A DNA stretch of 64,000 nucleotides from a phage: sequence record PZ445554.1; one strand, given 5' to 3'. A model generated the notes under the pieces. It worked only from the letters and a program-made list of their open reading frames with translations, did not search any database and was not told the origin of the DNA. The position numbers were made by a program, and so were the translations under genes. Positions 36,297 to 40,229 of the stretch are shown piece by piece. Numbering within the stretch: the stretch's first letter is position 1; every line of letters starts with the position of its first letter.

Positions 36297-36713
36297 TTAA
36301 ATGTAAATATTTTTGCCGTAATACTTGTACCAGTGTGGCTTCATTAAAATTTTTTCATCAAGTCGTTGTTGACTCAATTTAATAGCTGATTTGCATGGAT
36401 TATAATCATTTTTCCATTCTGCTGGAATATCGCTGATGTCAGGAACTTCAGTATCTTTTATACTGAACCCGCGTTTTAAGCATTCCGTTATAATGTCTAA
36501 TTGACGCTTTCGCAAAAATTCTAACTTATCGTAAAAGAAAGTAACATGACCAGAACCTAAAATAAATTTAGAAGATATTTTAAAATCTTTAACGCGCTTA
36601 CCGTTTGCCACATGCTTACGAACTATACCAAAAACACGTGGCAATTCACGGTATTCTGCTATTAAATGTTGATCAGCAAGTTCAGATACTAAAGTCAAAT
36701 TAATACGAGTCAT
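36297..36713 (-). CDS. denV: Endonuclease V (pyrimidine dimer DNA glycosylase)
   Basis: 138 aa; [17 protein letters not shown] recognised as T4 DenV with substitutions. Confidence 0.88.
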
Positions 36714-36772: not shown

Positions 36773-37303
<531 letters not shown>

Positions 37304-37759
37304 TTAAAAGAGGTTGTTCATTATTCGGTAAAGTGAAGGACCCATCACATATTGCCACTGAGTACGAGGAATAAGAGCAAAAGCATCCATCTCTGGAATC
37401 ATAACGCCATCTTTATTTTCAAAATAAGACTCACAATAGCAATTTCTGAACATCTCATGCTCTACTGGAATCGTATAATAAAATAACTGTAAGTCTTTAT
37501 TACTAGAATATTTAAATACACCTAGGTCTTCTAGAAGGTCTGGATTATAATTGCTAAAACCAGTCTCTTCTAAGCATTCTCTTCGTGCTGCATCTAGTGC
37601 GCTTAAATCAGAATTTTCTACGCGGCCCTTTGGAATATCCCAACGATGTGCCATCATTCCAGGCTTACGAGAACCAGTAACCCGACCCATAAATAAATCT
37701 TTATCTTCTGTCATAAAGATAATACCAGCTGATAATGTTTTCATTTTAATTTCCTGCAT
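37304..37759 (-). CDS. nudE: Nudix hydrolase
   Basis: 151 aa; Nudix box GRVENSDLSALDAARRECLEETGF. Confidence 0.8.
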   Translation of the reverse strand: MQEIKMKTLSAGIIFMTEDKDLFMGRVTGSRKPGMMAHRWDIPKGRVENSDLSALDAARRECLEETGFSNYNPDLLEDLGVFKYSSNKDLQLFYYTIPVEHEMFRNCYCESYFENKDGVMIPEMDAFALIPRTQWQYVMGPSLYRIMNNLF

Positions 37760-38229
37760 TCAGTGATAAAGTTATTTAAATTTTGAGCATATTTCTTTTC
37801 ATCAAAAATCTTTTGTTGTCTGCGTAACCGCCATGGCATTTCAATGAACACACACCATATTCCGGATAATATTGCTGCAGTAAAAATATTAACAAATATA
37901 GTACAAAGAGCCCAATCTCCTATTCTGTCCATTGGATTTTTTCCAAAGAAGTAAAATACGAATGATGACGCAGGAAGACTAATGATATACCACAGAAGCA
38001 TATTCTTATCCGTAAACCATTCAGCGTTCGTTAACTTAGCACGACCGTTTTGAATACAAACGAATTTATCGTCTGTTACAGTAGATGGCTTAACTGCTTG
38101 ATATCCCATTCTAAACTCCCTAATCAACAAATTTTTCATATCTTCGGAACAGCCATTCCAATCAACTCTATCAACTGGAATGCCATCATCTCCATCATCT
38201 AAATCATACCAGCGAGTTTTTAAAATCAT
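37741..38229 (-). CDS. Membrane protein, tandem paralog array member
   Basis: 162 aa; hydrophobic helices; C-terminus NNFITECRKLK. Confidence 0.5.
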   Translation of the reverse strand: MILKTRWYDLDDGDDGIPVDRVDWNGCSEDMKNLLIREFRMGYQAVKPSTVTDDKFVCIQNGRAKLTNAEWFTDKNMLLWYIISLPASSFVFYFFGKNPMDRIGDWALCTIFVNIFTAAILSGIWCVFIEMPWRLRRQQKIFDEKKYAQNLNNFITECRKLK

Positions 38230-38600
38230 TTAATTTTCCTGCAATCACTCACAAACTCTTCCATTGATTCTTTTTCAATATAAGACATGTAGTTATTATA
38301 TTCTTTTAATTGTATTTTGTAATCTTTTTTTCTTTGCCAATTTATTTTAAAATTATCATAATGAAAATATAACATGGTACCAAAGAATGAAAATAATGAA
38401 ATCGCTATAGTATAATGAAGTTCACTCCAAACTTCTATTATATCTATTATACCGCTGACGTTACTACGGATGTTTAAAATAAAACAGTCAATTAACAATC
38501 CAATAAGACTACCTGCAAGAGCTGCAAATGCTGATACGGCAAGAATTAATAGTGCCTCTGGAAACGAATATTTAACTTTATTTAGTTTTGGCTTTTGCAT
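38226..38600 (-). CDS. Membrane protein, tandem paralog array member
   Basis: 124 aa; C-terminus EEFVSDCRKIK. Confidence 0.5.
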   Translation of the reverse strand: MQKPKLNKVKYSFPEALLILAVSAFAALAGSLIGLLIDCFILNIRSNVSGIIDIIEVWSELHYTIAISLFSFFGTMLYFHYDNFKINWQRKKDYKIQLKEYNNYMSYIEKESMEEFVSDCRKIK

Positions 38601-38995
38601 CGTGATTCCTTAACAAATTTCATAATTTCATCAAATTCATACGCAGCAAGTTTAAGCTGATGTTCCTTTTTAATCTTTTTACACTGAGCTTTCCATTCGC
38701 GTACGCGTTTACGATAATGTCTTCCTTGATACCAGTATCCTACCCAATTTACAGGTACTAATAAAAATGGAACTACTAATGGAAGAATTAATACTAACAG
38801 AAATACTGCGTCTGATTCAATATCAGTAGTAACATCTATAACTATTCCAATAATCATTAGGATTATAAATGATACAGCTGTCACAGGACCTACTAATACA
38901 TCAGTAGGAATTAGCTGGCGCTTTAATTCATACTTCAACGGTTTACTTGGAAGGTATAGTGATGGTTTTGACATATTCTCTACATTCCTTAACAA
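38582..38995 (-). CDS. Membrane protein, tandem paralog array member
   Basis: 137 aa; C-terminus MKFVKESRCKSQN. Confidence 0.5.
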   Translation of the reverse strand: MLRNVENMSKPSLYLPSKPLKYELKRQLIPTDVLVGPVTAVSFIILMIIGIVIDVTTDIESDAVFLLVLILPLVVPFLLVPVNWVGYWYQGRHYRKRVREWKAQCKKIKKEHQLKLAAYEFDEIMKFVKESRCKSQN

Positions 38996-39551
38996 ATTTT
39001 TCTAATAATAAATCGCTTTCAAAATTGGGATTTTCTACGAATTTATCAAAAAGATCATCAACAATAGTTAAGATATTCTTTTTACTAAGAATACGTTTAT
39101 TTTCATGCTTCGTTTCAGAATCAACTATAAGAGTAAAGAAATATTTCTTTCCCTGAAATTTTACCGTAGTATCAATATAAAATAAATTTGACTTTTGTAA
39201 ATTACGTTTAAACCATGCGTCGCTTAAACTATAAACACCGAGATAATCAAAATCGTCGTTTAAATAACATACGGTCCATTCAGGAGAAATGAAATCAGTA
39301 AATTCAACATCAAAATCGCATGTCAATGAATAAATTGATTCAATACTGTTAATAAGTATTCCAGGACGTATTAAAGACTTTTTACCTCTGGAAAATCTTC
39401 CAGAAAGACTTTCATCAGTTTCATATGAAGAACCCCAATAATAATTACGTCCTTCTGCCATACGTTTAAGAGCATTTAGCAATTGGTCTGGAACATCAAC
39501 CTGTCTTTGGAACTCTTCAAACATTGAATTGAAATCACTTTGCATTTTCAT
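38943..39551 (-). CDS. Hypothetical soluble protein sharing the C-terminal motif of the array
   Basis: 202 aa; C-terminal EKFVKECREYVK. Confidence 0.5.
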   Translation of the reverse strand: MKMQSDFNSMFEEFQRQVDVPDQLLNALKRMAEGRNYYWGSSYETDESLSGRFSRGKKSLIRPGILINSIESIYSLTCDFDVEFTDFISPEWTVCYLNDDFDYLGVYSLSDAWFKRNLQKSNLFYIDTTVKFQGKKYFFTLIVDSETKHENKRILSKKNILTIVDDLFDKFVENPNFESDLLLEKFVKECREYVKTITIPSK

Positions 39552-39571
39552 TCCTATTTACTCCAAGTAAT

Positions 39572-39587
39572 AGGGGCCGAAGCCCCT
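39572..39587 (-). terminator. Stem-loop (UUCG tetraloop)
   Basis: AGGGGC-UUCG-GCCCCU. Confidence 0.5.
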
Positions 39588-39592
39588 TATCA

Positions 39593-40186
39593 TTATTTCA
39601 GAGAATTAATATATTCCTGAACATCGGCAGAGGTAGTTTCAACCCCAGAAATATTACCATTAAAGGTTTCAACTCGAGCAAGAGTATCTTCAATATCAAC
39701 CTTAGTCAGTGCTGCAATTTCAACTACATCATCAGCAGTACTAATTCCAAGTGCATTCGCTGCACGAGTTTCACGGATATATTCCAATTTAACTGCAAGT
39801 TCTTGGCGAGCATCATCTAACTCAACTACTTTCTTGGCGATTTCAATTCGCATTTCAGCATACCCATCAGCTTTAGTAGTCAACTGCTCAGCTGTTCGAC
39901 GATATAGCAAGCCGAGTTTAGCATGCATTGTTACATCTTGACCTTCGGAAAGAAGCTTGCGAATTTCACGCTCTTTTGATTCAGCCTGTTTATTCTTTTC
40001 AACAATAAGTTCACGAATACGCTTTTCTTCATTAATAGATTTAACAGAAGCAGTTTTTAGATCTTTAATCTTATCAAGTAGTTTTGCTGCTGCAGCAGTA
40101 TACTGTTCTTCAACAGATAGATTTTTAGCCATAGCAGAACCAAGTTTAGTGCGAATAAACTCAACAATTTTCTTCAGTGTGTTCAT
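39593..40186 (-). CDS. Coiled-coil protein (PspA/IM30-like appearance)
   Basis: 197 aa, almost entirely heptad-repeat helix. Confidence 0.45.
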
Positions 40187-40229
40187 AGTATTTCCTTAGG
40201 TTAATTAAGATTTAAAATCCATGAGAGTA

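Follow-up and report, generated by a model that had tools for sequence, protein, structure and literature searches.

A conserved C-terminal peptide on the e.2 to e.5 proteins of T4-like phages and its link to e.6

Why should four consecutive phage genes, three encoding membrane proteins and one a soluble protein, end in almost the same peptide, and is it the peptide or the DNA encoding it that has been kept? The question arises in a Tequatrovirus sequence of 64,000 nt (PZ445554.1; the whole stretch analyzed is called the window), whose positions 37300-40200 are 97.5% identical to C2-3 and ~94% identical to T4. The initial annotation of this DNA described similar tails at the ends of four consecutive genes, and all four are indeed there, on the minus strand. 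It also listed three membrane-protein genes and a 'following' soluble protein. The protein types are correct but the order is not, as the soluble protein is encoded by e.5, the first of the tail-bearing genes after e.6 in transcription order. The primary explanation offered at that stage, serial duplication or a junction element, is not the main one. What chiefly marks this locus, we find, is a protein tail that is conserved and linked to e.6.

The locus keeps the gene order of the T4 annotation, e.6 - e.5 - e.4 - e.3 - e.2 - nudE, and all features given here lie on the minus strand. The e.6 orthologue (39593-40186) encodes an all-helical protein of 197 amino acids. The e.5 orthologue (38943-39551; 202 amino acids, soluble; PHROG 2607) ends EKFVKECREYVKTITIPSK / LLEKFVKECREYVKTITIPSK, and the e.4 orthologue (38582-38974; 130 amino acids; PHROG 2604) ends MKFVKESRCKSQN / EIMKFVKESRCKSQN. 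These are followed by the orthologues of e.3 (38226-38600; 124 amino acids; PHROG 2330), ending EEFVSDCRKIK / SMEEFVSDCRKIK, and of e.2 (37741-38229; 162 amino acids; PHROG 2203), ending NNFITECRKLK / NLNNFITECRKLK. The last gene in this overlapping string is nudE (37304-37759), encoding a Nudix hydrolase (Pfam NUDIX, E = 1.5e-13); e (lysozyme, 36773-37267) and denV (36297-36713) lie beyond it. The PHROG matches for e.2-e.5 have E-values of 1e-61 to 1e-109, and the four proteins are 80-99% identical in amino acids to T4 proteins by tblastn (95-99% for e.5 alone). By sequence and by position between e.6 and nudE, the four tail genes are the orthologues of T4 e.5, e.4, e.3, and e.2. The e.2 protein has an N-terminal soluble domain of ~75 amino acids and two hydrophobic segments; e.3 and e.4 have two hydrophobic segments each. 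The start of e.4 is probably the ATG at 38974, the longer TTG open reading frame of the program-made list being doubtful as a start. For nudE, an alternative ATG at 37744 overlaps the e.2 stop, and the shorter start is the one annotated in SV76 and Ozark.

Existing annotation says little about these genes. In the records examined, e.2-e.5 carry no description beyond hypothetical protein or predicted membrane protein. An old GenBank record of T4, L13089, uses the names msp8 to msp3 (with e.2-e.5 as msp7 to msp4) and annotates early-type promoters before e.8, e.7, and e.6, together with a putative stem-loop after e.6. This corresponds to a GC-rich hairpin with a UUCG loop at 39572-39587, between e.6 and e.5, with no T-run after it on the coding strand. 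Newer Pfam entries, PF26873 (e.4) and PF26876 (e.5), appear to exist, as precomputed database labels indicate, and searches of e.2-e.6 against Pfam, NCBIfam, and PDB sequences returned nothing useful. The name 'sulfurtransferase' on some database entries was set aside, as it is backed by no model.

The C-termini of e.2-e.5 have in common the motif phi-x-x-F-[IV]-x-x-C-[RK], beyond which lies a short, mostly basic end. The motif codons lie at 37753-37770 in e.2 (FITECR), 38238-38255 in e.3 (FVSDCR), 38600-38617 in e.4 (FVKESR), and 38979-38996 in e.5 (FVKECR). The e.4 tail is a shifted variant, FVKESRC, whose Cys codon, TGC, takes in the ATG of e.3. The consensus of 31 tails reads [LI]-[END]-x-F-[IV]-[K]-[E]-C-R, then 0-25 residues, mostly a few basic ones. 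E184, F186, C190, and K195 are invariant in the e.5 family alignment. A strict requirement for the Cys is contradicted by e.4 orthologues, which have S, I, V, or M in its place. The end of gp59, FIETVKSCKY, is a loose match to the motif, probably by chance.

The recurrence of the tail is far beyond chance. Six-frame matches to F[IVL]x[DE][CS]R number seven in the 64 kb against ~0.6 in shuffles, and four of the seven are the C-termini of e.2-e.5. We also searched ~1,000 six-frame open reading frames of at least 25 amino acids, from the window and the rest of T4, for the strict motif [FW][IV]xxC[RK]. Only three matches were obtained, all of them the tails of e.2, e.3, and e.5, and this search found no further tail-bearing genes elsewhere in the window or the rest of T4. 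Across eight loci of eight genera, all 21 strict matches lie no more than 25 residues from a C-terminus, with none internal, although only 21% of the positions in those loci are within 25 residues of an end.

Tails of this kind are found in Tequatro-, Mosig-, Dhaka-, Kanagawa-, Jiaoda-, Moon-, Tulane-, Pseudoteven-, Ishiguro-, and Biquartavirus, and also in Pectobacterium phage POP12 and one metagenomic contig. The carriers in RB69 are e.3, e.4, e.5, and a further two-pass protein, ORF133c; those in JS98 and MX01 are e.2, an e.3-like protein, and a soluble protein at the e.5 position. The e.3 orthologues of RB69 and JS98/MX01 have the ends FIKECRK and FIKECKS, Dhakavirus e.2 orthologues end FIEECRK, and e.4 orthologues were found in Mosigvirus and Jiaodavirus. 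Kanagawavirus, Jiaodavirus, and Moonvirus encode four or five tail proteins each, and Tulanevirus encodes one. Among Aeromonas phages, an Ishigurovirus carries the tail on three consecutive genes, and a Biquartavirus also has tail-bearing proteins. Out of 1.84 billion representative proteins, the e.5 family profile matched only 13 clusters, whose full-length members all keep [ED]-x-F-[IV]-x-x-C-[RK]. Furthermore, an e.5-family gene with the motif comes right after e.6 in 13 of the 13 lineages sampled, including the metagenomic contig; one small open reading frame stands between the two genes in RB43. Conservation of the tail extends well beyond this window, to all 13 T4-like lineages sampled.

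One explanation, already raised by the initial annotation, is plain tandem duplication. The genes e.2-e.5 would then be paralogues, and the tail would be the best-kept remnant of their ancestor, functionless in itself. This holds in part for e.3 and e.4, which have the N-terminus MxKPxL and a two-pass architecture in common. Their profiles score 93.7% in hhalign with tails and 67.7% over 64 columns without them, in a comparison that is prone to composition bias for small transmembrane proteins. RB69 ORF133c also resembles e.3 when the tails are included. Given the profile similarity and the shared MxKPxL, one duplication (e.3/e.4) is plausible, and we consider these two genes possible paralogues. 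The same cannot be said of e.2 and e.5, which, once their tails are removed, are similar neither to e.3/e.4 nor to each other. Alignment of the four proteins outside the tail recovered the e.3/e.4 link, but all other pairs scored below 4% in hhalign. Tail-less BLAST linked only orthologues across genera, and a homologue search with a mixed membrane-protein alignment had only e.3 and e.4 orthologues among the matches listed. The e.5 protein is soluble, and its family, of 200-300 amino acids, is an old one of its own; compared with the proteins at the e.5 position in Kanagawavirus and Jiaodavirus, it scores 94% in hhalign with tails. Moreover, a remnant would not stay near-invariant where the bodies have diverged beyond detection. 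Duplication is thus an unlikely origin for the tails as a set. These comparisons indicate that the tail is a module, borne by unrelated or only distantly related bodies, soluble (e.5) and membrane alike.

A second explanation places selection on the DNA. Nucleotide sequence had been noted to recur at the gene junctions, and self-comparison bears this out. A 30-nt repeat, 80% identical, joins the ends of e.2 and e.3 (37741-37770 versus 38226-38255), and an exact 16-nt repeat, ATTCCTTAACAAATTT, is found at the ends of e.4 and e.5 (38605-38620 and 38984-38999). The selected object could be a nucleic-acid junction cassette, acting in translational coupling or in recombinational shuffling, with the peptide as a passenger.

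Evidence for coupling is present at the junctions. Each gene of the string e.5-nudE overlaps the next by 4-32 nt, with ATGA at e.3/e.2 and e.2/nudE, 19 nt at e.4/e.3, and 32 nt at e.5/e.4. At three junctions, AGGA lies 6-7 nt ahead of the ATG (of nudE, e.2, and e.3), inside the tail codons of the upstream gene. The AGG AAA next to the motif codons of e.2 and of e.3 is the Shine-Dalgarno sequence of nudE and of e.2, respectively, and AAG GAA in the e.4 motif is that of e.3; at the end of e.5, the ATG of e.4 comes 11 nt past AAGGA. Two rare codons, AGG (5% of Arg) and AAG (20% of Lys), occur exactly where they create the Shine-Dalgarno sequence. Judged by sequence criteria, the tail codons hold the Shine-Dalgarno sequence of the next gene, and e.5-nudE would be a translationally coupled string.

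The repeats also serve in gene loss. Ozark and SV76 are without e.2, and in both e.3 ends GATTGCAGGAAATTAAAATGAAAACA. Their e.3 follows the e.3 tail through TGCAGGAAA, which is common to the e.3 and e.2 tails, and then continues as the e.2/nudE junction, so that the end-points of the e.2 deletion lie inside the repeat. Since Dhakavirus has e.2 orthologues at the same place as T4, the state of Ozark and SV76 is a deletion by crossover inside the repeat. On occasion, then, the repeats provide the microhomology by which an entire gene, e.2, is lost.

A precedent for shuffling at gene boundaries exists in PeSL cassettes (promoter-early plus stem-loop), for which modular shuffling in T4-type genomes is documented (PMC2839356, PMC4122927). 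Like a PeSL, the tail repeat is short and recurs at the gene boundaries of a variable region, and e.2 was lost by recombination between two of its copies. Unlike a PeSL, which is a non-coding promoter and stem-loop/terminator conserved as DNA, the tail repeat is coding and is conserved as a peptide. Promoter-like sites at the e.5/e.4, e.4/e.3, e.3/e.2, and e.2/nudE junctions are at chance level, and no hairpin was found there. With no junction promoter or hairpin, a coding repeat, and synonymous variation, we rejected a mobile regulatory cassette of the PeSL type.

The codons themselves argue that the peptide is the selected object. Among 28 tails from seven genera, Phe is encoded by TTT in 20 and TTC in 6; Cys by TGC in 13 and TGT in 9; and Arg by AGA in 9, CGT in 5, AGG in 4, CGA in 4, and CGC in 2. 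Synonymous codons thus vary freely across genera at F, C, and R, which indicates that selection on the tail acts at the level of amino acids and not of DNA. A purine-rich ribosome-binding site does not account for the F, I/V, and C of the motif. In Pseudotevenvirus the motif is 25 residues upstream of the stop and hence off the gene junction, and in RB43, a Cronobacter phage, and POP12 at least 25 residues separate it from the stop. Note that, with the codon usage of this genome, two KFVKE peptides would be encoded identically in ~9% of cases, so the exact 16-mer alone is not strong evidence. The nucleotide repeats follow from the shared peptide together with codon bias, and are mostly a by-product of shared amino acids, with the two side roles described above. 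The proposed junction element therefore survives in its Shine-Dalgarno/coupling function and in the crossover that removed e.2, but it is the peptide, not the DNA, that is conserved. We consider a junction cassette a very unlikely object of selection here.

Two smaller ideas about the repeated DNA were also set aside. The 16-nt repeat presumably resembles the RegA SELEX consensus; an RNA operator of this kind was dropped, as the nucleotides are not conserved between genera. On reading the sequence, neither a MotA box nor a late promoter is present within the repeat.

If the peptide is what matters, it might be read by the host. The tail would then be a signal recognized by a host machine, such as a degron for ClpXP or FtsH or a targeting signal, and would govern how long these early proteins last or where they go. 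A signal of this kind would suit a motif found at the very end of otherwise unrelated proteins, most of which finish in basic residues, and in phages of Enterobacteria and Aeromonas, hosts that have such machines in common. Nevertheless, the tail has no tie to a known degron, some members have 11-25 more residues past the motif, and the linkage to e.6 is strict in every lineage examined. Recognition by a host machine is, in our estimation, highly improbable. Processing or packaging by the phage was rejected: the site of the T4 prohead protease gp21, [LI]-x-E followed by cleavage, would need a Glu that only three genera conserve, other tails having different residues there (FVDQCR, FIKYCR, FINLCR, FIKGCR), and the capsid-targeting sequence is N-terminal, while the motif is C-terminal and its carriers are mostly membrane proteins.

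Our preferred reading, to which we assign a probability of about 60%, is that the tail is a C-terminal docking peptide for a common partner, possibly e.6, on a coupled e.5-e.2 string. The e.2-e.4 proteins are small two-pass proteins of the inner membrane, and their tails would lie on the cytoplasmic side. Basic stretches lie ahead of the first and past the second hydrophobic segment in e.2, e.3, and e.4, and by the positive-inside rule the tails of these membrane proteins should face the cytoplasm; hydropathy likewise suggests a cytoplasmic location for the basic C-terminal stretch of e.4. Within the genus, conservation of these presumably cytoplasmic C-terminal stretches is 0.95-1.0 for e.3 and e.4, and the transmembrane and loop parts vary more. 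The tail may be where an amphipathic helix ends, with phi, F, and C lined up along one side, and the spacing phi(-3), F(0), C(+4) does fit one face of a helix. Residues 180-196 are helical in the AF2 model of e.5, at low confidence (pLDDT 56, a poor model).

Through their tails, all carriers would dock onto one common partner, or the carriers would be bundled with each other. The best candidate for the partner would be e.6, which is encoded immediately upstream; it is gene order, which is invariant, that nominates it. The small membrane proteins may then tether or regulate e.6 at the inner membrane. Shared terminal docking peptides are known, for example, as the clamp-binding ends of T4 gp43, gp33, and gp55. 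Like those ends, the tail is a short terminal motif on otherwise unrelated proteins, with a different motif sequence. Terminal docking peptides that unrelated proteins have in common are well known; what appears to be new is this particular motif in its gene context. Our searches of the accessible literature turned up neither the shared tail nor its connection with e.6, and nothing relevant on e.2-e.6 or on phage PspA-like proteins.

What e.6 might be is suggested by its predicted structure. In the model (pLDDT 75.5), an amphipathic helix at the N-terminus is accompanied by a long hairpin made of residues 25-80 and 86-145, and in a Foldseek search against the PDB, Vipp1/PspA took nine of the top 10 places, with a best E of 6.6e-4. 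PspA_IM30 is absent from the Pfam families reported for 24 e.6 homologues, the e.6 profile did not match a hand-entered sequence of E. coli PspA, and against PDB sequences the profile gave only a colinear, non-significant match to Vipp1. We treat a PspA/ESCRT-III-like fold of this candidate partner as a lead, not a result. PspA-family proteins have small membrane anchors, PspB/PspC and LiaI. The tail carriers would resemble these as small inner-membrane proteins encoded beside a long-hairpin helical protein, the likeness of e.6 being one of Foldseek ranking. A wider extension of the docking reading is tentative and, on balance, doubtful: an unrecognized membrane module in which e.6, as a PspA/ESCRT-III-like or other membrane-shaping hairpin, would act with adaptors attached through F-[IV]-x-x-C-R to stabilize or remodel the host inner membrane. 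The adaptors would comprise e.5, as the soluble one, and small two-pass proteins of the inner membrane, whose number varies.

No lytic phage has been studied better than T4, yet its e.2-e.6 are without an assigned function, and the tail gives a testable handle on them. The locus is also a case in which a conserved peptide can mimic a DNA junction element, the repeat then becoming a site of gene loss. The gene concerned, e.2, is intact in this phage and frameshifted in the T4 reference (laboratory T4); as it is also missing in some phages, at least e.2 is dispensable. A different rearrangement is seen in UFV11, which has an in-frame e.4::e.2 chimera with the joint inside the first transmembrane segment, showing that the two-pass bodies are interchangeable in architecture.

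The e.2 gene is an uninterrupted open reading frame of 162 amino acids in the window (37741-38229), whereas in the T4 reference (L001 3153-3461; L008 2927-3414) it is disrupted by a pair of compensating 1-nt indels that lie about 100 nt from each other. As a result of these indels, the T4 annotation gives e.2 only 102 amino acids and designates 160 bp as 'intergenic'. The start (37744-37759, minus strand) of the following gene, nudE, is ambiguous between two candidates. The upstream ATG (37759) falls within the codons for E-C in the tail of e.2, and the second (37744) forms an ATGA overlap with the e.2 stop. In phages that lack e.2, the nudE ATG that is kept is the second one.

The N-terminus M-x-K-P-x-L is common to e.3 and e.4 (MX01 also has MHKPSK), and each is encoded where the gene overlaps the tail of the preceding gene (38582-38600 and 38943-38974, minus strand). 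The repeated unit may therefore cover the tail, the ribosome-binding site and the start together. Phage UFV11 (L007 1804-2124) has a deletion of e.3 and carries a natural in-frame fusion in which residues 1-32 of e.4 are joined to e.2 from its first transmembrane segment to its end. The two parts meet within that segment, where they share a short microhomology. NCBI records give many e.3 and e.4 orthologues (P0001, P0006, P0048, P0050 and others) the name 'sulfurtransferase', which no Pfam or NCBIfam model backs.

Between e.6 and e.5 lies a hairpin, GGGGC-UUCG-GCCCC (39572-39587). There is no T-run on the coding strand, and it looks more like a stabilizing or processing hairpin than a terminator.

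In this variable region, RB69, JS98, IME523 and KM16 carry another serial family, made up of small soluble proteins (relatives' loci L002 3357-4152; L003 647-1889; L009 8710-9776 and 10106-10303; L011 9078-9846). Every member ends in W-[VIQ]-S-S-S-x-x-C followed directly by the stop, and no member of this family occurs in the window. The T4 helicase loader gp59 (gene 59, L018 18044-18697) has a C-terminus, ...NVFIETVKSCKY, that loosely fits the tail pattern of e.2 to e.5, a resemblance that is probably due to chance.
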